Positions 2,881 through 61,004 are shown, counted from the first letter of the whole stretch. The stretch: 62,111 nt of DNA, filler included, from Candidatus Fermentibacterota bacterium (GCA_016928395.1; 6 parts of 6 records of this genome joined end to end with filler, not necessarily neighbours in it), one strand, 5' to 3'. Made by a program: numbers and translations. Notes: generated by a model not told the origin, from the letters alone.

Positions 2881-2902
2881 TCTCAGTTCGTCACTGCCGT
2901 CA

Positions 2903-4528
2903 ATGCCTATTCAGACTGACAGCGGGAGCATCCCCGGCGCCGTGTTCTTCGCCGCCTATGCTGGCCCCAGCATGAATCCGACTCTGCGCGAGCCGGAGAT
3001 CATGGAGATCCTGCCCTATGACACCAGGCCCCTGCGTGTGGGCGATGTGGTTCTGTTTCTGTCACCGGAGGCTCATCAGCCGGTCGTACATCGCATTGTA
3101 CGTGTGACCCCCGCAGGCATATCCACGCTCGGTGACAACAATACCCACCAGGATGAGCCTCTTCTGCATCCGAGGAGCATCAAAGGCCAGGTGGTGGCCG
3201 CGTGGCGCGGGCAGAGGCGGCGGAAGATCGCCGGCGGGCTGCGAGGCCGGCTGACGGGCCGCTGGCTTCGTTGCCTACTCGTCCTTCGCCGTGGCGCGTC
3301 TCCTCTGCTCTATCCCCTGTATCATGCCCTGTCACGCGGGGGGTTGATCGCCTGGTTGGTCCCTGATCGATTCCGGCCGCGCGTCGTCGTCTTTCACGCC
3401 CAAGGCCGGGATCAGTTTCAGCTTCTGCTGGGCCGGCGTGTCATTGGCCGATACGATGACTACAGGCATCGATGGCAGATCCAACGGCCGTTTCACGTGC
3501 TTGTGGGGGGAAGAGCCCTTCCAAGGCAGCAGGACAAGACCCGCCTGAGCCGCCGCGTCTCGATTGAACGGCGACGAACCGTGGGCCATCCACCGACGCG
3601 GGAAGTATGGCATAGCCTGGCTTTGGCTGATGGGAGTCATTGGACAATTGCCGCCGGGGATGAGGAAGCCGCATCCATCGTCGCACAACTGGGATGCGCG
3701 ATGCAGTTGCCCAAGACCACGGGCGAAACGGAACCTTTTCAGCACAGTAATCCCTGCCGACTTGTCGTCACGGTGGACGCTCACACGTCCGTGGCGGATT
3801 GTTATGTCCCGTTGGCATCTGGGAACGACGGCGTCGTTGCCTGCATTCTGAGTCCATGCGACAGCTGGGGCGGCCCATACGTCAATCTGGTGAGACTATC
3901 GCTCATCTTTGCTCGCGAGGCGCAGGCCCGCGGAGGAGTCCTCATACACGGTGCGCTTGCTGAACGGGATGGCAACGGCGTGATCCTGGTTGGGCCGGGC
4001 GGGACGGGAAAGACCACTGCCAGCAATCGCCTTCCGGCCCCGTGGCGCTCGCTGTGCGACGATACCACGCTGGTGGTGCGGGATCCGCACGGGAACTACC
4101 AGGCGCACCCCTGGCCCACCTGGAGCCGCTTCCAGGACGGGGGTCCGGGCGGCACGTGGGACGTGCAGAACGCCGTGCCTCTCAAGGGCATCTTCATTCT
4201 AGCCCAGGCGGTTGAAGATCGGGTGGAACAGGTAGGCCCCGGGCAGGCGGTCAGCCTGCTCGTGGAGGGGGTGAGACAGGCCTCGATGTTCATGCCGCTG
4301 GGCCTGTTCAGAGACGAAGTCCGCACACTGTATCTTGAAGCGTTCAACAACCTTTGCGCCTTGGCCCGGATCGTACCTGCGCACATGCTTCACATCAGTC
4401 TGACCGGCCCCTTCTGGCAAGAGATTGAGCGGGCGCCTAAGGGAGACACGCGTGCGGAAACGCAGGAAACGAGCGTCAAAAACCAACCAGAATCAAAGCT
4501 CCGGAGCGTCGAAAGCGGGAGCGGATAG
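2903..4528 (+). CDS. scmC: fusion of S26 signal peptidase-like domain and HprK-related kinase (ScmC-like)
   Basis: N-term GPSMNPTL, VVHRIV, GDNN; C-term IHGAL...GPGGTGKTT...LCDD; start moved to ATG 2903, after the scmF stop. Confidence 0.78.
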   Translation: MPIQTDSGSIPGAVFFAAYAGPSMNPTLREPEIMEILPYDTRPLRVGDVVLFLSPEAHQPVVHRIVRVTPAGISTLGDNNTHQDEPLLHPRSIKGQVVAAWRGQRRRKIAGGLRGRLTGRWLRCLLVLRRGASPLLYPLYHALSRGGLIAWLVPDRFRPRVVVFHAQGRDQFQLLLGRRVIGRYDDYRHRWQIQRPFHVLVGGRALPRQQDKTRLSRRVSIERRRTVGHPPTREVWHSLALADGSHWTIAAGDEEAASIVAQLGCAMQLPKTTGETEPFQHSNPCRLVVTVDAHTSVADCYVPLASGNDGVVACILSPCDSWGGPYVNLVRLSLIFAREAQARGGVLIHGALAERDGNGVILVGPGGTGKTTASNRLPAPWRSLCDDTTLVVRDPHGNYQAHPWPTWSRFQDGGPGGTWDVQNAVPLKGIFILAQAVEDRVEQVGPGQAVSLLVEGVRQASMFMPLGLFRDEVRTLYLEAFNNLCALARIVPAHMLHISLTGPFWQEIERAPKGDTRAETQETSVKNQPESKLRSVESGSG

Positions 4529-30590: not shown

Positions 30591-33200
30591 CTACTTCAGC
30601 ACGACCAGCGGACGGCGGACCTCGCTCTGGGCCGTGGAGAGCCGCAAGAAGTACACCCCCTGCGACAGGCCCGAGACATCTACTGCCACTCTGTGGGTGC
30701 CGGCAGGCATGGAAGCATGCATCGGGGTGTTTACGCGCCTACCCGCGACATCGAAGATGTCGAGACGCGCCATGCTCTCTCGCGGTAAGTCCATGGTCAC
30801 CCAGGCTCGGTGTGCCGCAGGATTGGGCTGAGGCGGGCGTAAGGCCAGGGCTGCGGGAACCGGCGAGCTCGGATGCGTTGAGACTGCCCCGAGATCGAGG
30901 TAGTCGCCCGTCCGGGTTGCCACGCCCCGGAACTGCGACCAGAGCCCGGCAACGCTGCCGCCCTGGGCCTTGAAATCGAGCCCGGCGATCTGGGTGCCGG
31001 CGCCGACCACGAGGTCGATGTCGCCATCGTCATCCAGATCTGCAAGGCCAGGGGTTGAGCGAATCCTGAAGCCAAGGTTCAGGGCTTCCATGGCGGGGGA
31101 GCCGTCCGGCGTGAAGACCCGAAGATTCCCGTCATCGGCGCCCACAAGAATCTCCGGCACGCCGTCACCGTCCACATCCGCCACCACGGGCGACGATTCG
31201 CTTCTGGCGCCGATGCTCACGGGCCATCCCGGCATTTCCTGCAGGGCGAAGTCGAGCACATGCACCCACCCATTGGCAGCGGTGGCGATGATCTCCAGCG
31301 TGCCGTCGCCATCCAGATCACTCACAGCCGGAGTGGTCATGAGATCGCCCTCGAACATGATGGCGACGATCTCCTCGCCCGAGGGCTTCACGACGTGGAG
31401 TGCATCGTCCAGGCAGGGCATTAGCACGACGAGCCCGTGGGTCGCCACCGTGGCGGTGATGACCCCGGCCTTGACTTCCTTCGTGAAGGTCAGGGGCCAT
31501 CCCGGCAAGGCAGATCCGTCGCCGCGATACGCGAAGACACCCTTGCCCCAGGTGCCTACCACCAGATCGCGGACTCCGTCGCCGTCCAGATCAGCCAGGC
31601 AAACGCCGGCGGTCATGCGATGGGTTGAGCCCAAGGCCACGGGCCAGCCTGCTGAAGCATTGCCATCGGCGTTTAGCACCCACAGATCACCCGACATGGT
31701 GCCGGCGGCGATCTCCAGAGCACCATCACCGTTCACATCTCCCACCGCCACCGGCCCTGTGACGTATCCGCCCAGGTCGGCGGTCCAGCGGGTTGTGCCG
31801 TCTATGTTGAAGCAGTAGAGATGATTATCCCACGACCCGACGAGGATCTCCGGCAGGCCGTCGCCGTCGAGATCAACCACCGCAGGTGAGGAGGAGGCAC
31901 GCGATCCCGCCTGCGCGGGGAATCCGGTCAGGTACTGCCCCCGACCGTCGGTGACATGGACGAACCCAGCCTCATCCGCCACGGCAACAGCCATCCCGGG
32001 AGCGAAGGACGGGGGAGGCGCGAACACGGCCGGGCTTGAGAGCACTTCGGCGCCGCAGACCAACGGGAAGCCAGGCTGGTTAATTGAAACAAGCAGCGTG
32101 ACCGGGATAGTCTGCTCGTAGGCATCTCCCGACCCGAATGTCCCTCCAAACACCAGTTCCATGGGGAATGGCCCAAGCTCCGCCTCCGGGCTGACCGAGA
32201 CGCCAAGCTGCCCGGCGGCGACCCATGCCGTGTCGCCCGGCATCATGTCGGGAAGCGCTGCAAAGCCGTCAGTGACAGTGATCAAATCAGACAAGCTGAC
32301 CAGAGTCAAGGTTACATTGGACACTGCTCCCCAGTCAGGATCGGCCCGCACAGCGAGGGTCGCCGTGCCGTCTTCTCCGGGGTTGATGACACCGTCGCCG
32401 TCACCGCGGCCGCTTTCCGTGCCCTCGAAGCTTACCAGCCTGAACCACGGCAGCTCGGCAGGCATACGAGCCGTGGCGGCCTGGAAGACCCTTCCTAGTT
32501 CGTCCTCCTGGATGAAGACCACCACTTCCAGATTGTGCACTTCCCACGCCGGATCGAGCCCCGCGGCGACCTGTGCCGTGAACACCTGGTTCGTTGAGAG
32601 GTCGAGGGTCACACCATCAGGAGTCGGCACCATGTCACGCATGACCTGATCGAAGGGGAAGGAACTCGCCGACGGCCGGTAGAGATCCGACTCTATCAGT
32701 GCGCAGCGAAGATGCAGGGCGTCGGGAATGGTGGCCTCCGACTGGCCGGAACACGTAACGGTGAGCTGCCGGGCGGCAAAGTCAAGATCAACGTCGAGAT
32801 CCATGGTAATGAGGCTCGGCACCGCCAGCGCCTGCCACACCGCGTTCTCGTATTGAGGCACATCGGCATCCGCGTCGAACAGCATGTCAACGAAGAAATG
32901 GGGAGCATACAAGCCTTCACCAGGATTCTGTTGGTGGTCGTAGAGGTAGTAGATCCGGTCGCGGGATTCGGTGGGATTGGCGAGGTAGAAGGGATCGCTC
33001 CCGTCAGGCCACCAGCAATGGTAGCGGATGATGGCTAAGGAGTCGCCGAAGAGGTCATGAAGACGGTCCAACTCACGGTCGGACGCTGGGCAGGATGATC
33101 ACCCCGAGTTGGTGATCATCTCTCCCAGGACGACCCGCGACGCCGCGGAGCTGACCCCGGCGAGGGAGATCAAGAGAAGAAGAGCGAGATGGCGACCCAT
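30591..33200 (-). CDS. secreted selenoprotein candidate: Omp28/thioredoxin-like UxxC domain, FG-GAP/VCBS repeats, T9SS/FlgD-like C-terminal domain (869 aa, Sec at codon 34)
   Basis: RBS AAAGGAGG, ATG 33200, signal peptide, RVVLGEMITNSG-TGA(33101-33099)-SSC continues in frame into ORF 30591-33071. Confidence 0.82.
33066..33098 (-). promoter_or_regulatory. putative bacterial SECIS hairpin
   Basis: GUCCGAC-CGUGA-GUUGGAC 7-bp stem; G-containing loop starts 21 nt after the UGA. Confidence 0.6.
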
Positions 33201-33349
33201 CGAGGGCCTCCTTTCGATGTGCTGTGTGCCCCCACCTGCGGGCGGAAGGCGTGGCGAGGTCTTGGAACCGCCAAGGAAGCCTACAGCTTGAGGGTACCGC
33301 GAGTCAAGTGCCATCGTGACATGGCGGCCGATGCGCAATCCTGTGACCG

Positions 33350-35020
33350 CTACTGAAGCACCACAAGAGGAACGAGAGCATGGCGAGTGCCCCGGCGGAG
33401 TGCCAAGGCGTAGACACCGGCAGGTATGTCGTCGAGGTCGATGAACAGCGCGGGGGCTGCCCGCCCCGCATCCGGGCGTGTCTGCACGCCCATTCGCCTT
33501 CCTGCCATGTCGAGGAGAACCAGCCCCTCACCTTCGGACCACGGCCCCCCTCCGGCCAGGCGGGTGAAGCCCCTGGCGGGATTGGGCCAGAACGCCACCC
33601 GGGGCAGTGTGGCCTCGGTCTCGATGGGGAACGAGAAACAGGGAGGATGGTACTCGTAGCAGCCGCGGTCATAGGCCGCATTGTAGGGCCTCGGGAACAG
33701 ATCGAGGTCATCGGGGAGGCCGTTATCGAGCCCCGAGTCCACTGCGGGGGAGCTCTCATCCACGTGGAAGTCACCGGAGGCGCCCCACGCGGGGGCCGCA
33801 AACTGGGGGTCGCCGCAGAAGTTACCCGTGCCGAGGTCGCCGACCGTCGCGCAGGTGTAGGTCGTGCCGTTGGCCGTGATCTGTTCTGCGGCGTCGATGT
33901 CGAAGAGGTTGTTCTCGGCGATGACGGTGACGATGGGGCTCACATAGAACTGCCGCAGGCCTGCGACGATGACATTGCGCAAAATGAGAGTCGTGGGAAC
34001 GGTGGATTCGTCGTACTGAACCGTGGCCGTATAGTGAGGATGGCGATACGGCGAATCCCACATGGTCACATTGGTGATCTCGAAGGTTCCCCCGGCGTCG
34101 TCGGTACCGATGACCAGGAGACACCATGGGCTTGGCGTGGTGTCCCCCCCTCCCGTGGCATAGATCAAGGTGTTCTCGACTCGGCTGCTGTCTCCCCAGA
34201 GTTTGACCCCATCGGCAAAGTTGTTGGCCACGATGCAATGATGAATGTACGTACGCCGCGCCTTGGAATCCAGCCCATCTCCCAGATTGTGCTCCGCGAC
34301 CGTGTAGCGAACCTCGACGGGGCCCTCGGACGCCTCGAACCCCAGGCCGTCGGGGCGATCCCAGGGTGACTGTTGGTCGTGGCCATTGTAGAAGTGGCCC
34401 GAGTAGCTCAAGGAGCAACTGTCAATCAGCACATTGACCCACCCGTCGCCGCTGCCGCCGGGGCCGCCTAATGCGGTGTACCCGTTACGATGGATTGAGC
34501 AGCGGCGGATAGTAATGTCCCCGGCGTCGCCCCCCAGGTTGAAGGCCAACTCCTCGGTGTGGTGAATCTCGATGTCCTCGAACAGCAGGTCGTGAACAGT
34601 GCTGCCTGCATTGATGCCCGCCCGGGCGCCGCCGGTATACGGCGTGTCGATGAGGCTGGTGCATTCGAGGTTCTTCATCACGATATGGGCGCCATCTTCG
34701 ATGTCGGCGCAGGAGAACAAGGATCCCGCGCCAAGGAACCGTGGCCGGCTGGGGCCTTGGCCCAGGACGGCCGTGGGTGCCCCGGCGCTTCCTGAAGGAG
34801 GCGTGAGCATGTCATCATAGAATACCGCCATCACGTAGTCGCCCGAAAGAACCACGAGGGTGTCACCGCCGGCCATGTGTTTTGAGCCATACCCGGGCGA
34901 GGCCCACGGCTGGGCAGCGGTGCCCGGCCATGAATCGTTTCCTGCGGGAGACACGTAGTACGTGGATGCCTGTATCGCAGAGAAAGATGACAGCCACATG
35001 ACAAACACTATGGTTCTCAT
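33350..35020 (-). CDS. secreted right-handed parallel beta-helix protein with T9SS/FlgD-like C-terminus
   Basis: TYYVSPAGNDSWPGTAAQPW, DGLDSK, SPAVDSG...DRGCYEY, WPNP...GVY; start ATG 35020. Confidence 0.8.
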   Translation of the reverse strand: MRTIVFVMWLSSFSAIQASTYYVSPAGNDSWPGTAAQPWASPGYGSKHMAGGDTLVVLSGDYVMAVFYDDMLTPPSGSAGAPTAVLGQGPSRPRFLGAGSLFSCADIEDGAHIVMKNLECTSLIDTPYTGGARAGINAGSTVHDLLFEDIEIHHTEELAFNLGGDAGDITIRRCSIHRNGYTALGGPGGSGDGWVNVLIDSCSLSYSGHFYNGHDQQSPWDRPDGLGFEASEGPVEVRYTVAEHNLGDGLDSKARRTYIHHCIVANNFADGVKLWGDSSRVENTLIYATGGGDTTPSPWCLLVIGTDDAGGTFEITNVTMWDSPYRHPHYTATVQYDESTVPTTLILRNVIVAGLRQFYVSPIVTVIAENNLFDIDAAEQITANGTTYTCATVGDLGTGNFCGDPQFAAPAWGASGDFHVDESSPAVDSGLDNGLPDDLDLFPRPYNAAYDRGCYEYHPPCFSFPIETEATLPRVAFWPNPARGFTRLAGGGPWSEGEGLVLLDMAGRRMGVQTRPDAGRAAPALFIDLDDIPAGVYALALRRGTRHALVPLVVLQ

Positions 35021-35117
35021 ATGCAGTCGCTCCTGATCCCGTCCGCGTTTCAGGGTCGTGGTGCACGAGCCTCGCGGACTCAATCCTATCACCGCGGAAC
35101 GAGGGCTTCCCGGGTCC

Positions 35118-35957
35118 TCAGCCCCGGGGACGTACCAGCACCTTTCTCTTCCACCGGCCGGTGAGATAATAGGCAAAGCTAAGGGTGAAACCAACGACCC
35201 AGCCGGCGGGAATGCCCCACCAGATCCCTGGTGGCCCAAACCTCGATGACAGCAGCGCCGCCGCAGGGATTCGGACAACCCAAAGAGCCATGAGGGTGAA
35301 GAACATCTGGGCCAGCGTATCACCCGCGCCCCGCAACACACCACCGGTGACGAACATGCCGGCAAAAAGCACGTAGAATAGTGACACAATGACCAGGTAC
35401 TGGCTGCCATGGGCGATGACGGCTGCATCCGCGGTAAACAGCCTGACCAAATCTGGCCCCCATACGACCATCACCACCGTGGTCGCGCCCGAAAGCGCCC
35501 CTGCCATGACCAGAGTAGACAAAAAGCCACGACGAACCCGGTGGGCCTTGCATGCTCCCAGATTCTGGCCGACGAACATCGAGAGAGCCATGGCCAGATT
35601 CATGGCGGGCATGGAGGCAAAGGAGTCAAGCCTGGAGGCGGCGGTAAAGCCGGCCATGACGTCGGCGCCGAACGGCGCCACGATCCGGGTCAGGGCGATG
35701 AAGCCCAAGGAAACAAAGGAATGCTGGATTCCCGAAGGCAGCCCAATTCTCATCATGGTGGAAAACACCTTCCGATCCACCAGCAGCGCCCGGGGATTCA
35801 CATTGAGAAACGCCTTCTCGGCCCGAACCATGTACCGAGCCCCGATCCCGAAGGAGAGGGCCTGCGACAGCACCGTGGCCCAGGCGGCGCCCTTGATGCC
35901 CCAGCCGAACCGTACCACAAAGAGCACGTCCAACGCGATGTTGGTGATCGTGGCGAC
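35118..35957 (-). CDS. MATE family efflux transporter, partial
   Basis: GIKGAAWATVLSQ, RIGLPSG, VGQNLGA, VLRGAGDT; cut by contig end. Confidence 0.9.
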   Translation of the reverse strand, partial: VATITNIALDVLFVVRFGWGIKGAAWATVLSQALSFGIGARYMVRAEKAFLNVNPRALLVDRKVFSTMMRIGLPSGIQHSFVSLGFIALTRIVAPFGADVMAGFTAASRLDSFASMPAMNLAMALSMFVGQNLGACKAHRVRRGFLSTLVMAGALSGATTVVMVVWGPDLVRLFTADAAVIAHGSQYLVIVSLFYVLFAGMFVTGGVLRGAGDTLAQMFFTLMALWVVRIPAAALLSSRFGPPGIWWGIPAGWVVGFTLSFAYYLTGRWKRKVLVRPRG

Positions 35958-36549
35958 NNNNNNNNNNNNNNNNNNNNNNNNNNNNNNNNNNNNNNNNNNN
36001 NTTAATTAATTAANNNNNNNNNNNNNNNNNNNNNNNNNNNNNNNNNNNNNNNNNNNNAGACACCGCTCCCGGTTCTGCTCGATGAGACCGATGGCGTCAG
36101 ATCGAATCCCGGGGTCGATGTCGTGGGTGTTCTGAGTCATGGGGCTTCCCTCAGCCTCTGTCAGATGGGGGACGAATCAGTGAGCTGTGGAGACTTCTCC
36201 AGGTTAGCTCCGAACGGGGGCGTGAGTCAAGCGCACCGTCCCTTCCCGTGCGCAGGACTGCGAACCGGGCTGGGGATCGTGGGGAGGGTTCTCCCGACAT
36301 GGGAGCCGGTCAGGAGGTGAGGCTGATGCACGGCAGGGTTCGGTCGGGCCTGAAGGCCGTCCGGCGAGGCGATCCAGTGGGATGCTTGACCCGATTAGGC
36401 TATCATGCGATACTGGTATCATGGTGTCTCTATCCTGAGATGGCTCCACAACGCGGAACCGGGCGAACCGGCAAGGCTTCGGCTGCCATTCCGGATCGAG
36501 ATTAACGAAGACATGGGGACGTGAGGGGTTGATCCTGAGGGAGGCACCC

Positions 36550-39522
36550 ATGCGACAATCGAGCCTACGCGCCCTGATCCTTGCGCTCTCGCTATTACCC
36601 TCCTTGGGCCGTGCCCAGAGCCATGCGTCATCTTCTTCTGATCCTCCGGCTTCCACGGCTGCCCTCCCGGACACCCTTCTCCCATGGCAACGGGCCCTCA
36701 GCGAATCTGACCAGGCATATGTTGACTCGCTCCAGGTCTTGATCGTCGAGTTGCGGGGCGAGGCGCGTTACGCCGATGCCATCGGGCCGGCGGAGGAGGC
36801 GCTGCGGATTCGTCAGGCCGCCCAGGGAGATGACCACTGGGAGACGGCTGATGCGGCCAGGCTGCTGGCAACCCTGCGGCACGTGGCGGCACTAGAACCG
36901 GACGCCCGGGCTCGCCTGGCCGAGGCCGACCGGGCTGACGATGAAGTCCGGCGGCTGTTCGCTGAGGGTGACTGCGAGGCAACCGCCGCGGTGATCCGCC
37001 GCCAGTTGGCCATCCGGAGGGAGATCCTCGGCGATGACCACCTCGAGGTCGCCATCACGATGGATGACCTCGCCGTCGTTCAGTGGACGATGGGAGACTT
37101 CGCAGGGGCGGAGCCGCTGTTCCGCCAGTCGCTCCTACTGAACCGGCGGCTCCTGGGAGCCAGCCATCCCAACCTTGCCCGGGCCATGAACAATCTGGCA
37201 ACGGTGCTCTCCTGGCAAGGCAACCACGAGGCCGCGATTGGCCAGTGTCGGGAAGCGCTTGCCATGAACCGGCGGCTTCTCGGCGAGAACCATCCCCATG
37301 TGATCACTGACCTGGACAACCTGGGGGTCTATCTGGGCGTGACAGGGGACTACACCGGGGCGGAGGCGTCCTCGCGCGAGGCAGTCACCCGTTCGCGCGC
37401 CGTGTTCGGGGAGCAGAACCCTGATCTGATGGAGTATCTGCAGAATCTCGCCCTTCATCTCGAACACCTCCACGATCATGCCGGCGCCGAGGCCCTGTCT
37501 CGCGAAGCCCTGGCCATGAGCCTGGCTCTGTGCGGAGCGAGCCATCCGGCCGTCGGTGAAGCCCGGTTCGGCTTGGCCCTGCAGCGTGCGATCAACGGTG
37601 ACTATGAAGAGGCGGAGCGGCAGTACCGAGAGGCGTTGGCCATCGTGCAGGTCTCCACACCGAGAAGCCCGTTTGCCGTCCTCAATCGTGTGGGTCTTGC
37701 CGAGGTGCTTCACCTGCGCGGCGACTATGCCGCGGCGGAGACCGCGTGGATTGCCGCGGCAGAAAGCTTCGAGGTCGTACGGAGGCAGATGAGTCGTGGT
37801 GGATTCGGGCGGGTCAAGTTCATGGAGAACTGGTCTCCGTTCGAGCGGCTCGCCGCGTGTCAAGCCCGAAACGGGAAGCCCCGATCCGCATGGGAGCACC
37901 ATGAAGCCCATCTGGGGCGGGGCCTGCTCGATGCGCTGAACGAACAGACCTCGGGGCGGCTGATTCCAGAGGAACGCGACATGCGGCAGGCACATCTCGA
38001 CACGCTTGCCGCGCTGGATGACCAGATCGGCGCGCTCGCCCAGAGTAGCGACACCTCGTCTGCATCCTCGGCACGGCTCGACAGCCTTCGCGGGGAGCGT
38101 GAACGACAGCAGACGGCAGTGTCGCTCTTGGAGACCGATCTGGCTGCTACGTACAGCAATTTCCCAGGCGAGGCGGTCGGGTTGGAAGATCTTCAGGCGA
38201 GCCTTGGAGAGCATCAGGCGCTCCTGGCATGGGTGGACGTCGCCGGCGATCCCCACGCGGCTGATCCCAACGGAGAGCACTGGGCGTGTGTGGTGCGGCA
38301 CAGGGGCGAGCCCCAGTGGGTGCACCTGAGCGGCAGCGGAGAGTCAGGGGCATGGACCGCGAGTGATGACGAGCTGCCCGGGGTGGTCGAGGCGGAGCTG
38401 GGGGAATCGCAACGACGCGGCCTTGGCGCGGGGATCGAGGCGCGGCGTCTGCTGTACGGGCAACGCATCGCGCCTGTCGAGGGGCACCTGCAGGGCGTGC
38501 GGCATCTCCTGGTGATACCATCGGGGTCGATGACCCGTATTCCGGTGGACGCACTGACCGATGCGTACACTGTGAGTTTTACCCCCTCGGCGACATTCTG
38601 GGTTTCGCTTCGCCACCAGCGAAGGAATGAAGGAGGCGGTGCAACGCTTCTGGCAGTTGGCGATCCCGTACTCGATGACCCCACGGGCGAGGATCCAAGC
38701 CGAATCGAAGACGAGACGATTGCATGCCTGCGGTCGGCGGCCTACCTGCCGCTGCCCGGGACGCGGGTGGAAGTGGAAACCATTGCCGGGCTCTTCGAAG
38801 ACGCGAATGCCGGCTCGGCGCCTACGGTCCTCCTGGGATCCGCCGCCAGGGAGCAGCCCTTGTGCGCCGCCGCCGCATCAGGCGAGCTGGAGGCGTTTTG
38901 CTATATCCACTTCGCGACGCATGCCGTCATGAATGACCGAGTGCCCATGCAGTCAAGCCTCGTGCTCTCGCGGGAAGACTTGGGCGATGCGGTTGACCGG
39001 GCTGCCCGCGGCGAGGCGGTCTATGACGGGGTAATCACCGCTGAGCAGATCCTGCGCACGTGGCGGCTTGACGCCGATTTGGTGACGCTGAGCGCGTGTG
39101 AAACCGCGTTGGGCAGGGAGTACCGTGGGGAAGGATGCCTTGGCTTCTCGCAGGCGCTGTTCGTTGCGGGCGCCCGGAGTCTCCTGTTGAGCCTATGGAA
39201 GGTCGAGGACCGGGCCACCATGCTCCTCATGACACGCTTCTACGAGAACATGCTGGGGGTACATCGAGAGCCTCGCACCGTGGGAGGGCGCTCGTTCGAA
39301 GCCGGCGTGCCGCTTCCGAAGGCCGAGGCCCTGCGCGAGGCGAAGGGGTGGCTGCGCACGCTCACGACGGCGGAGCAACAGGCCATGGAGCCGCTGTCAG
39401 ATCGGGTGGCAGAGAGAGGGCTCGTGCCCGTGGAAGAACCGGCTCCCGCGTCGCCTGAGGATCAGCCCTACGCGCATCCTCACTTTTGGGCAGCCTTCAT
39501 CCTCACCGGCGATCCGAGGTAG
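36550..39522 (+). CDS. signal peptide + TPR repeats + CHAT (caspase-like) protease
   Basis: kinesin-light-chain-type TPRs, YIHFATHA, TLSACETALG, SLWKVED, HPHFWAAF. Confidence 0.92.
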   Translation: MRQSSLRALILALSLLPSLGRAQSHASSSSDPPASTAALPDTLLPWQRALSESDQAYVDSLQVLIVELRGEARYADAIGPAEEALRIRQAAQGDDHWETADAARLLATLRHVAALEPDARARLAEADRADDEVRRLFAEGDCEATAAVIRRQLAIRREILGDDHLEVAITMDDLAVVQWTMGDFAGAEPLFRQSLLLNRRLLGASHPNLARAMNNLATVLSWQGNHEAAIGQCREALAMNRRLLGENHPHVITDLDNLGVYLGVTGDYTGAEASSREAVTRSRAVFGEQNPDLMEYLQNLALHLEHLHDHAGAEALSREALAMSLALCGASHPAVGEARFGLALQRAINGDYEEAERQYREALAIVQVSTPRSPFAVLNRVGLAEVLHLRGDYAAAETAWIAAAESFEVVRRQMSRGGFGRVKFMENWSPFERLAACQARNGKPRSAWEHHEAHLGRGLLDALNEQTSGRLIPEERDMRQAHLDTLAALDDQIGALAQSSDTSSASSARLDSLRGERERQQTAVSLLETDLAATYSNFPGEAVGLEDLQASLGEHQALLAWVDVAGDPHAADPNGEHWACVVRHRGEPQWVHLSGSGESGAWTASDDELPGVVEAELGESQRRGLGAGIEARRLLYGQRIAPVEGHLQGVRHLLVIPSGSMTRIPVDALTDAYTVSFTPSATFWVSLRHQRRNEGGGATLLAVGDPVLDDPTGEDPSRIEDETIACLRSAAYLPLPGTRVEVETIAGLFEDANAGSAPTVLLGSAAREQPLCAAAASGELEAFCYIHFATHAVMNDRVPMQSSLVLSREDLGDAVDRAARGEAVYDGVITAEQILRTWRLDADLVTLSACETALGREYRGEGCLGFSQALFVAGARSLLLSLWKVEDRATMLLMTRFYENMLGVHREPRTVGGRSFEAGVPLPKAEALREAKGWLRTLTTAEQQAMEPLSDRVAERGLVPVEEPAPASPEDQPYAHPHFWAAFILTGDPR

Positions 39523-42664: not shown

Positions 42665-42764
42665 NNNNNNNNNNNNNNNNNNNNNNNNNNNNNNNNNNNN
42701 NNNNNNNNTTAATTAATTAANNNNNNNNNNNNNNNNNNNNNNNNNNNNNNNNNNNNNNNNNNNN

Positions 42765-44269
42765 ACATTGACGTGAGTCCGACGAGTCTGAGCATGACGG
42801 CGGAGGAGGGGTCGAGCACGACGGCGACATTGACGGTACAGAACGTGGGGGGTGCAACGCTGACGGTGAGTTCGATCACGGACAATCAGACCTGGCTGAG
42901 CGAGAGCCCGACGAACTTCAGTGTGAATGCGGGGTCGAGCCGTGCTGTGACAGTAACGGCGAGCGCGGCGAGCCTGACTGTGGGGACCTACACCGCGACG
43001 ATCACGATCACGAGCAATGATCCTGATGAAGCGACGAAGACGGTAGGGGTGACGTTCACGGTGACGGCAGAGCCCGAGATCTGGGTGAATGCGACGTACC
43101 TGGAGATCGAGGTGAATCAGGGGACCCAAGGAGAAGCCTGGTTCGAGGTGAAGAACGTGGGTGGCGGCACGCTGCAAGTCACGGACATGCATGATGGATC
43201 GGATGATATCTGGCAGAGCGAGCAGGCATTCAATCTCGGCCCGAATGAAAGCAAGTGGGTAGGCGTGTACTCCGGCAACTGGATGTACGGCGGGACCTAC
43301 GATTTCACCATCACCATCGACAGCAATGCCGGCAACGCAACGATTGAACTGCACGTGATCATCAATCCCGTAGGTGGGGAATGCAGTGAGTTCAACTGGA
43401 CTTCCGTCCACACTGACGGGATTGACTACTACGGAGTCTCATCAGACGGCTGGAACGGCTGGGCCGCCGGATACCGCGGTATCTCACGCACCACAAATGG
43501 ATCGTCGTGGAGTGAGCTTGGGGTCCAGGACAACTTCGCCGACATCCATGTGGTGGGATCAACAGGGTTTGCCGTGTCAGGTGGGAGCTGGGGCAAGGTA
43601 TTTCGAACCTACAACGGCAGCGATTGGGATCAGGTCTACGCTGCTGAAGGCGCAGGATGTGCCGGCGTCTTCTACGATGGCGGTTCGACCGTGTGGGTCG
43701 CGGCCGGCGGCGGGAAGGTCTTGAAGAGCACTAACACTGGCGGCAATTGGGATGCCATTCAGGTCGGATCCTCCAACGTGCAGTTGCTCTCGGTGTTCTC
43801 TGAGGGGAACGGGGTCGTCTGGGCATGCGGCACTAGCGGCTCGTCGTGTCTCTACAAGTCCACCAACTGGGGCAACTCCGGTTCGTGGTCTCAGGTGAGC
43901 GTGACAAACATAGGTGGTCTCGAAGACGTATGGTTCAGCAATGGGACTGGCTGGCTCGCGGGGGCCTCAGGCATCCTCTACTCATCAAACGGCGGAGGAA
44001 GCTGGAACCAGGCGAGCGTCCCCGTTGGCGGACCATTCCGTGCCGTGCAGAGCGATGGCTGGAGCAGCACATGCGTGCACGCCGTGGGAGGAAATGACTA
44101 CTCCGGATTCATCATCAGGTCATCCGATGGTGGCGCAACGTGGGAGACCGAGTACACAACCAGCTATCGCCTGATGGAATTGGTGATGGGTGACACATGG
44201 GGCTTCGTTGTCGGGGGCAATCCCGGACCAACCGGAGGGATCTGGAAAGGGGCTGCCACCGCAAGATGA
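42765..44269 (+). CDS. surface protein with BACON/Ig-like domains and YCF48/BNR-type beta-propeller, 5' partial
   Basis: Ig-like NVGGATLTVSSITD...SNDPDE; repeated S/TxDGGxxW Asp-box motifs. Confidence 0.8.
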
Positions 44270-44743: not shown

Positions 44744-44765
44744 GGAATGCAAAGTGGAGGATCAG

Positions 44766-45578
44766 ATGCAGCGCGAGAGATCGCCGAGCCACCAAACGCT
44801 GCGCGATTTCGTTGACGCACTCCAAGCGGAGGGTCGCTACACCTTTGATCGCGCAGAGGCGATGGCCGTTCTCAAGGTGAGTAGCCCCGTGCTCAAGAAG
44901 GCCATGACGCGCCTTGTCGCCAAGCGGCGGATAGCGGTGCCCACGCGAGGCTTCTTCGTGATTGTGCCGCTGGAGTATCGGGCAGCCGGGGCACCCCCTG
45001 CTTCGTGGTTCATCGACGATCTCATGCGCCATCTGGGCAAACCCTACTACGTTGGCGTGCTGTCAGCCGCGGGGCTTCACGGTGCGGCACACCAACAGCC
45101 GCAGGAGTTCCAGGTCGTCACTGCCGTGAGCAGGCGATCAGCGGTGGCGGGCAGATCGCGGATCAGGTTCTTCGGTAAACGCCATGTCGAACACACGCCT
45201 ACTGCGGTACTCAAGTCCGAAACGGGGACGATGCGCGTGTCCACGCCAGAAGCCACGGCGATCGACCTCCTGCGTTACCTGTCTTCAGCCGGCGGCCTTG
45301 GCAATGTGGCGACCGTGCTCGCCGAACTGGCCGAACGGATAGATCCCGCACTTCTCGCCCAGGCGGCCGCCGACGATGGCGAATTCGCCTGCGCACAACG
45401 ACTTGGCTACATCCTGGACGCTGTCGATAGCGGAGATCGGGCCGAGGAACTGGCCAAGCTCGTAGCGAACGCGGACCCTCGGAGGATTCCTCTCGTCCCG
45501 GGGCTGCCCACCAGGGGATGTCCTGTGGACCGGCGTTGGCACCTCATCCTCAACGAGCGGGTTGAAGCCGATCTGTGA
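44766..45578 (+). CDS. abiEi: type IV TA antitoxin AbiEi family
   Basis: GFFVIVPLEY, YYVGVLSAAGLHGAAHQQPQ, VSTPEATAIDL. Confidence 0.88.
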   Translation: MQRERSPSHQTLRDFVDALQAEGRYTFDRAEAMAVLKVSSPVLKKAMTRLVAKRRIAVPTRGFFVIVPLEYRAAGAPPASWFIDDLMRHLGKPYYVGVLSAAGLHGAAHQQPQEFQVVTAVSRRSAVAGRSRIRFFGKRHVEHTPTAVLKSETGTMRVSTPEATAIDLLRYLSSAGGLGNVATVLAELAERIDPALLAQAAADDGEFACAQRLGYILDAVDSGDRAEELAKLVANADPRRIPLVPGLPTRGCPVDRRWHLILNERVEADL

Positions 45579-46435
45579 TCCAGCGCGCGTTCATCACGGA
45601 GTGGAGGAGCAAGGCACCCTGGGCTCTCGACGAACAGGTGGAGCAGGATCTTGTCGTGTCCCGGGCTCTCGTGGAGCTCTACTCCGAAGAGGTGCTGCGG
45701 CGCGGGCTCGCATTCAGAGGAGGGACAGCACTGCATAAGCTGTACCTTGAGGTGCCGGCACGCTACTCGGAGGACATCGATCTCGTACAGGTGGAAGCCG
45801 GCCCCATCGGCCCCGTGGTGGATGCAATCCGGCGACGGCTCGACCCCTGGCTCGGCGTACCGCAGTGGAAGCGCGGGCATGGCCGCGTGACGCTCAACTA
45901 CCGGTTCATGACCGAACCCGAGCCGGTGCAGCAGAAACGACTCAAGGTAGAGATAAACACACGCGAGCACTTCTCGGTGCTTGGCCTCGTAGTCCGGCGT
46001 TTCGATCTTGCGAGCCGATGGTGGAGCAGGCAGGCCGAGATTACCACCTATGCGCTGGACGAGCTTCTCGGGACCAAGCTGCGTGCGCTCTACCAGCGAA
46101 AGAAATGCCGTGATCTCTTTGACTTGTGGATCGCCGCCAGCTGGTCGGATGTGGATGCGAGCAAGGTTGTGCACTGTTTCCTGCGCTATGTGGGCAATGA
46201 TGGCCTGCGCGTCTCGCGAGCCGAGTTTGAGGCCAACCTGCACAGGAAGCTCTCCGACCCCCTGTTTGGACGAGACGTGGAGCCTCTGATCTCCCTGACG
46301 ACAAAGTGGGATCAGGCTTCGGCTGCCGAGTACGTGTTGACCCATCTTGCACCGCTGTTGCCCGGGCAACCCTGGAAGGCGAACCCAAAGCCTCCGTCGG
46401 TGGTAGGGCGGAACCATGAACATATGTCGAGCTGA
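45575..46435 (+). CDS. abiEii: type IV TA nucleotidyltransferase toxin AbiEii
   Basis: AFRGGTALHK, RYSEDID, KLRALYQRKKCRDLFD. Confidence 0.92.
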   Translation: MIQRAFITEWRSKAPWALDEQVEQDLVVSRALVELYSEEVLRRGLAFRGGTALHKLYLEVPARYSEDIDLVQVEAGPIGPVVDAIRRRLDPWLGVPQWKRGHGRVTLNYRFMTEPEPVQQKRLKVEINTREHFSVLGLVVRRFDLASRWWSRQAEITTYALDELLGTKLRALYQRKKCRDLFDLWIAASWSDVDASKVVHCFLRYVGNDGLRVSRAEFEANLHRKLSDPLFGRDVEPLISLTTKWDQASAAEYVLTHLAPLLPGQPWKANPKPPSVVGRNHEHMSS

Positions 46436-46653: not shown

Positions 46654-48606
46654 ATGAGAGCTCTTGGAATCATTGCCGCCGTCATCGCGGTTGGGCTGCT
46701 GATGTTTCGCTGCTCCAAGGAACTGGAGGCACCGCCGGGAGCGCCGGGGATTGAGGTCACAGCACCGACCAGGGGAGACGTGTGGGATTCGGGGAGTTCG
46801 CATGAGATTGTCTGGACGTCGGAAGGGACGTCGGGTCACGTGAAGATCGATGTAAGTGACGATGCGGGGAGCACATGGGAGACGTTGGTCGCTTCCACCG
46901 ACGATGATGGTGGTCATCCGTGGACGGTGCCGGACATGGCGTCTGGCCTGTGCCGGATCAGAGTAGCCGACACGGATGGGACGCCCTCAGCGTTAAGCGA
47001 TACGTTTGCGATCGCGGGGATCTCCGTGGTCACACCAGCCGCGGGAGCAGTCTGGGCGGTCGGCGCCACTGAGGAGATCCGGTGGAGTTCGTATGGAGTC
47101 TCTGACAGGGTGAATCTGGAGGTCAATCGAGGCGGCAACTGGGTTGCTGTCGCCGATTCGGTTCAGAACACCGGGTCATATTTCTGGCTGGTATCCGGCC
47201 CCGAGGCCGGCAACGGGATGATTCGCGTATCGGATGTGGACGGGAGTTTCTCGGGCATGAGTGGGGCCTTTGCGATCCGGGAGCCGTACATCACGGTGAC
47301 GGCGCCCGGAGCTGGAGATACATGGGTGGTGGGGACGAGCCGCGAGGTCATATGGACGAGCCTGGGTGCATCGGGATCAGTCGATGTAGCTGTCAGCTAT
47401 GACAACGGGGCAGGCTGGAGCACGATCGCGTCCGGAGTTGCCGACAACGGAAGCAGAGCCTGGACGGTCTCGGGCCAGGCCTCGAGCATGTGCAGGGTGC
47501 GGGTTCGCGATGCAGATGGAACTCCTGAAGGCCTCAGCGGCCTTTTCACCATCCACCTGCCCGCTCCGGACATCACGATCGCCCCAGCGAGTCTGACGCT
47601 GAGTATTTTTCAGGGGGCGAGCGTGGACACGGCGATTGTGGTGGCGAATTCCGGTGACGCGCCCTTGCAGGTCACCTCGATCACGGACAACGCCACGTGG
47701 TTGACTGCGGCACCGGCAAACTTCACTGTCGCGGTGGGATCCAACCAGAACGTGACAGTGACGGTCAACACGGCGGGTCTGGCCTACGGCCAGCACAACG
47801 CAACCATCACCATCGCCAGTAACGATCCGGAAGAGGGGCAGGTGGCCGCGCCGGTGAGCCTGACCGTTCAAGAACCTCTCCTCGACATGGTCTCCCTGTC
47901 GGGCGGAACCTTCCAGATGGGGTCGACGTCGCAGTGGGCGGACTCGGACGAGCAGCCGGTGCACACGGTGACGGTGAGTTCGTTCTACATGTCGAAGTAT
48001 GAGGTGACGCAGGCGCAATATCAGGAGGTGATGGGGACGAACCCGTCGTACTTCCAAGGTGCGAACCGGCCGGTGGAGCGGGTGACGTGGTATGATGCTG
48101 CTCGGTTCTGCAACGCGTTGAGCGTGAGCGAGGGGTTGACGCCGTGCTACAATGAGAGCAACTGGAGCTGCACCTTCTCGGCGAACGGGTATCGGTTGCC
48201 GACGGAGGCGGAGTGGGAGTATGCGTGCCGTGCGGGGACGACGACAGACTACTACAACGGGAACGAGACGCAGAGTGGCTGCAGTCCGATTGATCCGAAC
48301 CTGAATCTGATCGGGTGGTACTGCGGGAATGCCAACAACCAGACGCATGACGTGGGAGGGAAGCAGCCGAACTCGTTTGGGTTGTACGACATGAGCGGGA
48401 ACGTGTGGGAGTGGTGCAATGACTGGTATGGGAGCTACTCCTCGGGGTCGCAGACTGATCCGACGGGGCCAAGCAGCGGTTCCTACCGGGTGCTCCGCGG
48501 CGGCCGCTGGTACGACTACGCCCAGTGCTGCCGCTCGGCCAATCGGTTCTACAACTCGCCCGGCGGCAGCAGCCGCTACGACGGGTTCCGTCCCGTCCGA
48601 GATTAG
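46654..48606 (+). CDS. DGR target: lipoprotein with Ig-like stalk and C-terminal FGE-sulfatase (C-type lectin fold) domain
   Basis: lipobox-like LLMFRC, repeated Ig domains, FQMGS...EVTQ...RLPTEAEWEYACRAG...GNVWEWC...RVLRGG.W...GFRPV. Confidence 0.9.
   Translation: MRALGIIAAVIAVGLLMFRCSKELEAPPGAPGIEVTAPTRGDVWDSGSSHEIVWTSEGTSGHVKIDVSDDAGSTWETLVASTDDDGGHPWTVPDMASGLCRIRVADTDGTPSALSDTFAIAGISVVTPAAGAVWAVGATEEIRWSSYGVSDRVNLEVNRGGNWVAVADSVQNTGSYFWLVSGPEAGNGMIRVSDVDGSFSGMSGAFAIREPYITVTAPGAGDTWVVGTSREVIWTSLGASGSVDVAVSYDNGAGWSTIASGVADNGSRAWTVSGQASSMCRVRVRDADGTPEGLSGLFTIHLPAPDITIAPASLTLSIFQGASVDTAIVVANSGDAPLQVTSITDNATWLTAAPANFTVAVGSNQNVTVTVNTAGLAYGQHNATITIASNDPEEGQVAAPVSLTVQEPLLDMVSLSGGTFQMGSTSQWADSDEQPVHTVTVSSFYMSKYEVTQAQYQEVMGTNPSYFQGANRPVERVTWYDAARFCNALSVSEGLTPCYNESNWSCTFSANGYRLPTEAEWEYACRAGTTTDYYNGNETQSGCSPIDPNLNLIGWYCGNANNQTHDVGGKQPNSFGLYDMSGNVWEWCNDWYGSYSSGSQTDPTGPSSGSYRVLRGGRWYDYAQCCRSANRFYNSPGGSSRYDGFRPVRD
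48481..48606 (+). other. DGR variable region (VR) with IMH near 48583-48597
   Basis: run of NNC codons (TAC, CTC, CGC, TAC GAC TAC, TGC, TTC TAC AAC, GGC GGC AGC AGC CGC TAC GAC), as expected from AAC-rich template mutagenesis. Confidence 0.75.
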
Positions 48607-58583: not shown

Positions 58584-59645
58584 GTGGTTGTGACATCACG
58601 AGAGAGAATCTTGGCCGCTGGAAAATGTCAGCAAACAGACGTTGTCCCGGTGGCGCCCTACATGGGAAATCATGCAGCCCGCCTCGCGGGAGTCCCCCTG
58701 GGAGAGTACTACAACAAGCCCAGCAGGTTGGCCCACGCCCAGAAGCGAGCCTGGGAGCTCTACGGACAGGACGTGCTGGTCGTGCAGTCCGACAACTACT
58801 ACATGGCCGAGGCCTTCGGCTGCGTCACGGATCATCACGCGGACGGCCTACCGACCATGAAGAAGACGGTCATCGGGGAGATGCGGGACATTGCCCGGCT
58901 GAAGCGGCCGGACCCCCGCACAGATGGCCGGATGCCTGTCTTCCTCGAAGCCATGGAGCTACTGCGACAGTCGGTGGGATCGGAAGTCGCGCTGCGGGGC
59001 TGCGGCACCGGGCCGTTCGTCATGGCTGGGCACCTGATGGGTCCTGAGAAGCTGATGATCGAGCTGGCCAAGATCGAATATGGGCTTGGAGGTGACGAAC
59101 AGGCTCTCGAAGCACTGTTTGAGATCACCCTTCAGACCTTGATCGATTTCGTTAGCCTGCAGCTGGAAGCCGGGGCCGACATCGTGCAGTGTGCGGACTC
59201 TTTGGCTTCGATCGACGTCGTATCGCCCGACATGTACGACAAATACGTGTGGCCGTTCGAGAAACGGTTCTTCGACGAAGTCAATCCGCTCTGCCGGGAG
59301 CACGGTGCGCTAAGTCTCCTGCATATATGCGGAAACAACACCAAGGTCTTCGGACGCTTCGCAGAGCTGGGTGCCGACATTGTTGCGATCGATCACAAAG
59401 CCGATCTGGCCACCGCCAAACAGGTGATTGGGGGAAGTGCCTGCCTGATCGGCAATATCGACCCCTCCTCGGTCCTGCTACTGGGCGACGTGCATGAAGT
59501 CGAACGGCAGTGTGAGCTGTGCATCGCAAAGGGCAACGAGCAGGGAGGCTTCATACTCGGTTCCGGCTGCGAGGTCGCCATGGACACACCACTCGAGAAT
59601 ATCCAGGCCATGATACGCGTGGCGCGTGCCCATGCATGTGGATAG
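58584..59645 (+). CDS. uroporphyrinogen decarboxylase family protein (MtaA/CmuA-like)
   Basis: AEAFG, GPF, LHICG, GNIDP, FILGSGC, TPLENI. Confidence 0.88.
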   Translation: MVVTSRERILAAGKCQQTDVVPVAPYMGNHAARLAGVPLGEYYNKPSRLAHAQKRAWELYGQDVLVVQSDNYYMAEAFGCVTDHHADGLPTMKKTVIGEMRDIARLKRPDPRTDGRMPVFLEAMELLRQSVGSEVALRGCGTGPFVMAGHLMGPEKLMIELAKIEYGLGGDEQALEALFEITLQTLIDFVSLQLEAGADIVQCADSLASIDVVSPDMYDKYVWPFEKRFFDEVNPLCREHGALSLLHICGNNTKVFGRFAELGADIVAIDHKADLATAKQVIGGSACLIGNIDPSSVLLLGDVHEVERQCELCIAKGNEQGGFILGSGCEVAMDTPLENIQAMIRVARAHACG

Positions 59646-59660
59646 AGGAGCCGCTGCGTC

Positions 59661-60821
59661 ATGACCTCGAGGGAGAGAGTAAGCACGACACTGCGACACC
59701 AGGAACCCGACCGGGTGCCTGTGGACTTCGGCAGCCGCTCTTCGGCCATCGAGGAACAGGCTTATGGGCAATTGCAGGCTCACCTGGGGATAGGGGGAAA
59801 GACGGAGACGTTTCTCCGGTCCCACGCCGTCATGACGGAGGAGATGCTGCGCTTCTTGCACGTTGATACGCGCTGGATTCGGAGCATCCCGCCGGCATCC
59901 TGGATGCGTGACAACAGAGGGGACGTGTATGTCGACCGATGGAATGTCCCCTGGCTTCGCAGGCACGGGAGTCTCTACTACGAGCTCGAGCCGTCACGAT
60001 TGGTGACGATGCAGCACGGGGATATCGAGAAACTGGAGTTCCCAGAGTTGGTCAGCGACGAGATGCTGCTGGACATGCGTGTTCAGGCAGAGAACCACGG
60101 ACACCAAGGCGACTACTCGCTGTGGTGCGACGTGGTCGGAGCGGGAATCTTCGAGAGGGCATGCTATCTTCGGGGTTTCGAGCAGCTGATCGTGGAAATG
60201 ATGGTGGAAAAGAAATTCGCTCACCACTTGTTCGAGAAGATCCTGCACACCGAGATCGTTGCCTACCGCCGGATCCTTGAGGCTATCGGACCGCTTATTG
60301 AGGGTGTTCTGATTACGGAAGACGTTGCCACTCAAGACAGTCTCATGATGTCGCCTGAGACTTACCGCGAAATGCTTGAACCATATCAGAGGCAATTGAT
60401 CGAGAGCATCCAGAGCCGCGGCGTCTCGGTACTGTGGCATTCCTGCGGAGCCGTGCACCCGTTGATACCGGATTTCATCAATATGGGCATCCGAATCCTC
60501 CATCCTATTCAGACCTCGGCCCGGGGCATGTGCCCACGGTGGCTCAAGGAGCAATTTGGGCGAGACCTGGTGTTCTGGGGTGGTGGCTGTGACACGCAGA
60601 CGGTGCTGCAAAGGGCAACGGCGCCCGAGGTGGAAGCAGAGGTGCGACAGAGAATCGCTGAGCTAGGCCCGGGAGGGGGCTTCGTGTTCACCACTACCCA
60701 CTGCATTCAGCCAGGTACGCCGGTGCAGAACATCCTCGCGATGGTGGCTGCGTACAAGCGATTCGGGGCATATCCACTTCTTTCCTCCTGGCCCGAGGGG
60801 AATTCGACGGTCGCCCGGTGA
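59661..60821 (+). CDS. uroporphyrinogen decarboxylase family protein
   Basis: MTSRERV...EPDRVPVD, HSCG, FWGGGCDTQ, HCIQ. Confidence 0.88.
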   Translation: MTSRERVSTTLRHQEPDRVPVDFGSRSSAIEEQAYGQLQAHLGIGGKTETFLRSHAVMTEEMLRFLHVDTRWIRSIPPASWMRDNRGDVYVDRWNVPWLRRHGSLYYELEPSRLVTMQHGDIEKLEFPELVSDEMLLDMRVQAENHGHQGDYSLWCDVVGAGIFERACYLRGFEQLIVEMMVEKKFAHHLFEKILHTEIVAYRRILEAIGPLIEGVLITEDVATQDSLMMSPETYREMLEPYQRQLIESIQSRGVSVLWHSCGAVHPLIPDFINMGIRILHPIQTSARGMCPRWLKEQFGRDLVFWGGGCDTQTVLQRATAPEVEAEVRQRIAELGPGGGFVFTTTHCIQPGTPVQNILAMVAAYKRFGAYPLLSSWPEGNSTVAR

Positions 60822-60931
60822 AGCCGAATTGCGGAAGCAATAGACTTTCGGAGTCTCGGGCAGCGAGGCTGCAGATGCGAGCATCGCCAGGCAGGGAGGG
60901 CTCTTCGACGGCCCGCCTATCCTCTCGCGTG

Positions 60932-60983
60932 TTGACACCCCCGGGGATAATTGTATACTATATTGTAATATTGTTGCACAATG
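60932..60983 (+). promoter_or_regulatory. sigma70 promoter with overlapping operator boxes
   Basis: TTGACA-16-TATACT; ATTGTATACTA and TTGTTGCACAAT boxes. Confidence 0.7.
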
Positions 60984-61004
60984 TGGTGACGGGAGATTGG
61001 GAGC

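Follow-up and report, generated by a model that had tools for sequence, protein, structure and literature searches.

The locus described here raises the question of whether two open reading frames (ORFs) on the minus strand of the window, by which we mean the whole 62,111-nucleotide stretch of DNA analyzed (filler included), are separate genes or two parts of one. The ORFs, at 33099-33338 and 30591-33071, have a common frame with a single TGA (33099-33101) between them, and an earlier note on this DNA had read the pair as a hidden secreted selenoprotein. We consider it very probable that they are one mis-annotated gene for an 869-residue secreted selenoprotein, with selenocysteine (Sec) at residue 34 decoded from the UGA at 33099-33101. 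The selenoprotein interpretation is supported by the pairing of Cys and TGA among relatives, by a downstream hairpin at the SECIS position, and by the domains that the earlier note had named. The gene and its 5′ features are as follows:

30591-33200, minus strand: the complete predicted selenoprotein gene, made up of 869 codons, one of them an in-frame TGA, and the TAG stop (from reading the sequence).
33207-33212, minus strand: Shine-Dalgarno sequence AGGAGG, 6 nt 5′ of the ATG (read directly from the sequence).
33138-33200, minus strand: signal peptide, residues 1-21, with a basic N end, an LALLLLISLAG core and SAAS (recognized by eye).
33099-33101, minus strand: TGA predicted to encode selenocysteine, residue 34 (from the frame and the Cys/TGA pairing in relatives).
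33090-33101, minus strand: redox motif U-S-S-C (residues 34-37), which lies at the N end of helix 37-54 (from the sequence, the alignment and an AlphaFold2 model).

The frame opens with the ATG at 33198-33200 and runs for 869 codons, through one internal TGA, to the TAG at 30591-30593. The upstream ORF as listed begins at a TTG; the ATG sits six bases 3′ of the AGGAGG (33207-33212) and is likely the true start. When the TGA is read as U, the 869-residue product consists of the leader MGRHLALLLLISLAGVSSAAS, the strand RVVLGEMITNSG and then U34-SSC37-PASDRELDRL...IIRYH, with the motif in the context ...TNSG-U-SSC-P, and it closes with the tail ...GVYFLRLS...VVLK before the TAG. Homologues at the family loci carry matching leaders. 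By itself, the downstream ORF begins MDRLHDLF..., has neither a hydrophobic leader nor a Shine-Dalgarno site, and takes as its “start” a TTG that falls within the 3′ arm of the hairpin described below. What had been claimed of the frame, of the read-through product from signal peptide to U-SSC and IIRYH, and of the missing signal peptide in the downstream ORF is borne out by this reading.

The identity of residue 34 was approached through relatives. With residues 1-260 as query, an exhaustive HMMER search returned 1534 relatives at E <= 1e-3, and the alignment was built from the best 150 of these 1534 and the matches of one further protein search, giving 140 rows that cover the motif. Among the 140 covering rows, Cys stands at position 34 in 134 (Ser in 3, Asp in 2, Pro in 1) and at position 37 in 137, which agrees with the earlier placement of U at the first Cys of a thioredoxin CxxC. 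A further 23 rows begin downstream of the motif, several at exactly the next residue. Protein conservation extends to both sides of the TGA, including the leader and the RVVLGEM-TN strand. The annotation of P0003-P0006 and P0012, which are the five closest relatives at the protein level, places their starts just after the TGA/CxxC site. P0003 and P0004 are 74% and 65% identical to the window protein, and P0003, P0004, P0005 and P0006, which all begin at that point, have the FG-GAP architecture in common. Because the protein annotation is truncated at the same residue, we infer a TGA for P0003 and P0004 as well. P0009 also starts just after the CxxC site, and it corresponds to a gene in locus L006, whose DNA shows the TGA.

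Scanning public genomes with the pattern [LVI]I[RS]YHxWWP yielded 59 loci with 63 family genes. An in-frame TGA lies at exactly the first-Cys codon (UxxC) in 29 of the 63, and 30 encode CxxC; of the other four, one encodes CxxS, one has its TGA displaced and two have an upstream frame that is disrupted. Cys/TGA pairing is found at codon 34, where the earlier note had suggested that homologues be aligned. The record titles of the TGA forms name Zixibacteria, Gemmatimonadota, TA06, Ignavibacteria, Glassbacteria and Marinimicrobia. A Cys paralogue and a TGA paralogue occur together on one Gemmatimonadota chromosome (CP070758.1; L033 and L034), and L037, L039 and L045 each hold two TGA-form paralogues about 1.2 kb apart. 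At about 6100-6180 of L027 the in-frame TGA is shifted by a few residues (…NTSGGGGU-PQG…) and the second Cys is absent; a variation of the motif, an indel or an error may explain this.

In a quick maximum-likelihood tree, made with the motif columns removed and the short rows L043 and L053 excluded, the window protein groups with P0003 and P0004 (support 100), and this group nests in a seven-row clade that includes L001. The latter, from a Candidatus Fermentibacteria record, is the nearest relative with DNA (50% identity) and is a Cys form. The Sec/Cys state changes at least 11 times on the tree, at least 5 of these changes being forced by well-supported branches. The window protein is a member of a large clade that is recognized by its IRYHxWWP motif and that shows repeated switching between Sec and Cys forms.

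A hairpin follows the UGA, and its parts are a 5′ arm at 33078-33084, the loop at 33073-33077 and a 3′ arm at 33066-33072:

33066-33084, minus strand: SECIS-like hairpin with a 7-bp stem and the loop CGUGA (from RNA folding and family comparison).

The 7-bp stem and the CGUGA loop are as the earlier note had described them, but its distance of 21 nt after the UGA holds for the loop and not for the stem, which starts at 14 nt. Bacterial SECIS elements have a small apical loop that holds a G, immediately downstream of the UGA (PMC1088965). Taken alone, the hairpin in the window is at chance level, as the 76-nt fold has z = 0.41 and an equally stable perfect hairpin appears in the zone in 225 of 2000 (11%) synonymous re-codings of the same peptide. 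What goes beyond chance is, at the level of sequence comparison, the Cys-or-TGA pattern in relatives rather than the hairpin by itself. We also considered whether the hairpin is a by-product of the A-D-x-x-L-D peptide, an idea that is partly rejected, since Cys forms with a similar peptide mostly have no hairpin; for the window alone it keeps some footing, given the 11% of re-codings with an equal hairpin.

For comparison across the family, each gene was scored by its most stable perfect hairpin within 75 nt counted from the codon. The median score is -7.1 kcal/mol in 30 TGA forms (window included) versus -2.5 in 30 Cys forms (Mann-Whitney p 8e-7, uncorrected for relatedness). Compared with downstream control windows, the zone after the TGA is more stable by a median difference of -4.25 in the TGA forms (Wilcoxon p 1e-7, n = 28, uncorrected for relatedness), whereas the difference for the same zone in the Cys forms is -0.72 (n = 30); the zone beats every control window in 14 of 28 TGA forms versus 4 of 30 Cys forms. 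RNAalifold returned no consensus pairs across all 30 TGA forms because the sequence and register of the hairpin vary between lineages, and two lineage-specific groups were therefore tested separately. The window-type hairpin (nine sequences) retains its five core pairs in all nine, with one pair changed from AU to GC in three, while in the Zixibacteria-type hairpin (ten sequences) 96% of cells pair and one pair is changed from UA to AU in three. Each of these compensatory changes is probably a single evolutionary event. A search of the whole window against Rfam gave nothing at gathering thresholds, and at E <= 10 the surroundings of the site gave only chance snoRNA and miRNA matches.

Two Cys forms, L001 and L041, are nested among TGA forms and have kept the stem while losing the loop G. 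At L001:6091-6135 and L041:692-736, an A stands where their TGA-form kin have the loop G. Both genes have the look of recent conversions from Sec to Cys in which the SECIS is decaying, and it is known, according to the available text of PMC1794560, that Cys forms can keep remnants of SECIS-like structures. These genes also bear on the idea that the TGA is a sequencing or assembly error for TGC or TGT in an ordinary Cys-form Omp28-like protein. Only one base separates TGA from either codon, the assembly behind the window is of metagenome style and contains a contig joiner, and the nearest relative with DNA has Cys; yet the two closest proteins, P0003 and P0004, come from other assemblies and are truncated at the same residue, and the window gene has a SECIS-type hairpin with the loop G that the Cys forms L001 and L041 have lost. 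We regard such an error as very improbable.

The genetic code of the window was considered next to the codon itself. TGA terminates 16 of the 29 Pfam-supported ORFs and is the commonest stop among them, so the code is not reassigned, and global reassignment under codes 4 or 25 was rejected on that count. The same 16 ORFs speak against recoding of the UGA by a route other than Sec, such as near-cognate insertion of Trp or Cys or a local reassignment, an explanation that has no direct support and that we find more improbable still than an error in the sequence: the residue found there in the alignment is Cys and neither Trp nor Gly, and the family shows the Sec/Cys pairing and the hairpin typical of Sec genes.

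A scan of the 62-kb window found no tRNA gene, hence no tRNA-Sec, and Pfam models applied to its 47 long ORFs found no SelA, SelB or SelD, both results being uninformative at 62 kb; scans of the flanks of the 59 family loci found no tRNA-Sec. That Sec machinery was not seen in the window would fit a real stop, in which case the locus would be a pseudogene or remnant without Sec decoding, making a 33-residue peptide or nothing useful. The chance-level hairpin (z 0.41, equalled in 11% of re-codings) and the frequency of TGA as a stop in the window are compatible with this as well. Against it, protein conservation covers both flanks of the TGA, with the leader and the RVVLGEM-TN strand among the conserved parts, the same TGA recurs in 29 family genes from several phyla, and the part downstream lacks a start signal and a leader and yet ends in a secretion tail. 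We consider a real stop improbable and retain the reading of the UGA as selenocysteine. A search for other Sec candidates in the window gave 77 TGA-joined frames with loose redox-like motifs, none of them convincing except the target (62% G+C).

The read-through product has the following domains, in agreement with the earlier proposal of an Omp28/thioredoxin-like part, an FG-GAP part and a T9SS tail, which Pfam, NCBIfam, AlphaFold2 and Foldseek confirm:

32466-33137, minus strand: thioredoxin-like subdomain plus Omp28-like beta-sandwich (HBP35-like), residues 22-245 (Pfam/NCBIfam, AlphaFold2, Foldseek).
32088-32435, minus strand: middle beta-rich domain, residues 256-371 (pLDDT about 50-70; no Pfam or family match).
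30969-32045, minus strand: FG-GAP beta-propeller, residues about 386-744 (Pfam; pLDDT mostly 83-94).
30594-30827, minus strand: T9SS type A C-terminal sorting domain, residues 792-869 (PF18962, TIGR04183).

The FG-GAP repeats score 94.9 bits with PF13517 (cut-off 26.9) and 73.7 bits with PF01839 (cut-off 22.1), and the T9SS tail is above both of its cut-offs (PF18962, 32.4 vs 27; TIGR04183, 27.7 vs 23). The Omp28 model PF11551 matches residues 119-243 with 34.6 bits, 0.3 under its gathering cut-off of 34.9; the fold match to 2r2c speaks for homology. An AlphaFold2 model of the first 260 residues, based on 49 aligned sequences, has a pLDDT of 90.7 and a pTM of 0.87, with a strand (24-30), the UxxC loop, a helix (37-54), a strand (55-61), further helices and a beta-sandwich (131-245). 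The order of a strand, a CxxC-type motif (U34/C37) at the start of a helix and another strand is the thioredoxin-like one, and the invariant Pro100 before strand 101-104 would fit the cis-Pro loop. The full-length model, made from only 6 aligned sequences, has a mean pLDDT of 68.2 and renders the N terminus poorly; its confident parts are limited to the propeller (about 386-744) and the tail, so that the bounds of the middle domain are rough.

T9SS cargo requires a signal peptide. The one recognized by eye is present solely in the read-through form, and the T9SS tail makes sense only with a leader, which therefore favors read-through. In the window itself we found no clear component of the T9SS machinery, the GldK/PorK-like match reaching 113.7 bits against a cut-off of 350.

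Searching the PDB with Foldseek ranked HBP35 first, then 2axo and then the Omp28 domain 2r2c, and a sequence profile search of the PDB returned the same three together with weak thioredoxin matches. HBP35 of Porphyromonas gingivalis (5y1a) aligns with residues 1-260 of the window protein over 248 columns (E 9.7e-14, TM 0.72). Published work describes HBP35 as a cargo of the T9SS that carries a thioredoxin motif as well as a C-terminal sorting domain, that binds hemin and that loses its in-vitro thioredoxin activity when its two Cys are mutated. It differs from the window protein in having Cys instead of Sec and no propeller, and the two are 16% identical. The second-best fold match, Atu2684 (2axo; E 5.6e-11), also matches in sequence over the CxxC region (E 5e-7); it is a single-domain protein of unknown function, of which no Sec form was seen. 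Omp28 (PF11551, NF033782, 2r2c) matches through its beta-sandwich half (2r2c: sequence E 2e-8, fold TM 0.68, target-normalised), with the window protein under the Omp28 cut-offs (PF11551, 34.6 vs 34.9; NF033782, 30.4 vs 150). By eye, the leader of the window protein is of the secreted type, unlike the outer membrane lipoprotein leader of Omp28.

Other UxxC selenoproteins (Trx, DsbA-like and thiol:disulfide interchange proteins) likewise have Sec in place of the first Cys of CxxC, where a helix begins in a thioredoxin-like fold, and the table in PMC13188914, as far as available, lists many thioredoxin-fold UxxC families. The Pfam models for Trx, DsbA-like and thiol:disulfide interchange proteins had no significant match to the window protein, and thioredoxin 1fo5 was a weak sequence match in the PDB (E 8e-4).

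The closest published selenoproteins come from an ocean metagenome, in which Zhang and Gladyshev (2008; PMC2398784) described the hypothetical protein GOS_C. The accessible part of that paper gives 74 Sec sequences and 312 homologues with Cys, and assigns the protein a thioredoxin-like fold and SECIS-like hairpins. The available text of a 2026 review (PMC13188914) equates GOS_C with the “Omp28-related selenoprotein” NF045500 and gives its motif as UxxC. As far as these sources show, GOS_C/NF045500 and the window protein are alike in the UxxC motif, the thioredoxin-like fold, the many Cys homologues and the SECIS-like hairpin; the portions available to us do not mention an FG-GAP propeller or a T9SS tail, unlike what is found in the window protein. 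The NF045500 model gives the window protein 16 bits (E 0.0058), with a curated cut-off of 200, and 0 of 23 TGA-form relatives pass that cut-off, the best reaching 71.5 bits (E 8e-20). Since TGA-form relatives match with E values down to 8e-20 and the scores stay below the cut-off, we place the window clade as homologous to the curated NF045500 family yet outside it. The setting is less unusual for Sec than the earlier note had claimed, as an Omp28-related UxxC family (GOS_C, NF045500) was already published in 2008. This kind of protein was therefore already known, and the window protein is a divergent multi-domain variant of it, not a new kind; the find is solid and, with related selenoproteins known since 2008 (PMC2398784), unsurprising. 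Our literature search found nothing linking selenoproteins with T9SS, FG-GAP or Omp28, and the supplements of selenoprotein papers may list related sequences.

Under the selenoprotein reading, translation would start at the ATG (33198-33200), and the UGA at 33099-33101 would be decoded as selenocysteine by SelB and tRNA-Sec, with the hairpin 14 nt downstream presumably assisting. Translation would then proceed past the UGA to the TAG at 30591-30593, giving a product in five parts, namely a cleavable signal peptide, the HBP35/Omp28-like module, the middle beta domain, the FG-GAP beta-propeller and the T9SS sorting domain. Sec34 would occupy the position of the first, attacking Cys in a CxxC, leaving the resolving role to Cys37. 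Of this scheme, the single frame, the Cys/TGA pairing, the fold and the domains are directly documented. The protein would be exported through the Sec route and then the T9SS to the cell surface or the medium, where, by analogy with the redox activity of HBP35, it may carry out thiol/selenol-disulfide oxidoreductase chemistry outside the cell. The propeller could hold a ligand, a substrate or a partner.

The wider meaning can be put forward only tentatively. The window gene may lie in a large unrecognized clade of T9SS-exported cell-surface selenoproteins, in which selenium redox chemistry would be routinely placed outside the outer membrane and tethered to ligand-binding propellers. The clade occurs in bins labelled Zixibacteria, Gemmatimonadota, TA06 and Ignavibacteria and in their kin, with about half of the sampled genes being Sec forms, and the six members with an FG-GAP propeller, the window gene included, all appear to be Sec forms. 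Because the database entries of relatives start just after the TGA, they lose the signal peptide and the active site, and this truncation by annotation pipelines leaves the secreted redox proteins of an entire clade wrongly described, in candidate phyla for which metagenomes are the only source. Recognizing it would enlarge the selenoproteomes of these phyla and mark the lineages as selenium users, and would point to cell-surface redox chemistry, possibly with heme or metal handling if the likeness to HBP35 extends that far. With its many natural Sec/Cys switches and fading SECIS remnants, the family also offers material for studying the gain and loss of Sec.

Several other genes in the window were noted along the way. 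At 42665-42765, two N runs flank TTAATTAATTAA, an all-frame stop linker, and the window is therefore two joined contigs, with the target gene on the first (1-42664). On that contig, the gene just upstream of the target (33350-35428, minus strand) encodes a beta-helix protein whose tail (...GVYALALRRG...VVLQ) is T9SS-like by eye, with no model match at E <= 0.01, and a large TPR and CHAT-domain protein lies near the target gene at 36529-39522 (plus strand). At 1807-4528 (plus strand), the radical SAM gene at 1807-2880 precedes an ORF that matches the SynChlorMet cassette protein ScmC (TIGR04249, 177.9 bits, cut-off 125) and has a signal-peptidase-like N-terminal part. Beyond the linker, the proteins at 42773-44269 and 46654-48606 (plus strand) carry Ig-like domains of the DUF1573/OS_HP2 “(seleno)protein” type, with OS_HP2-type scores of 21 and 33.5 bits (cut-off 100) and no Sec codon seen in either; the N end of the former is cut by the contig joiner, and the latter also has an FGE-sulfatase domain with a sub-threshold GldK/PorK-like match. 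At 44754-46435 (plus strand) an AbiEi antitoxin is paired with an AbiEii toxin (Pfam E 9e-36 and 1e-33), and three tandem URO-D family genes occupy 58584-62093 (plus strand), the full profile being matched by the first only.
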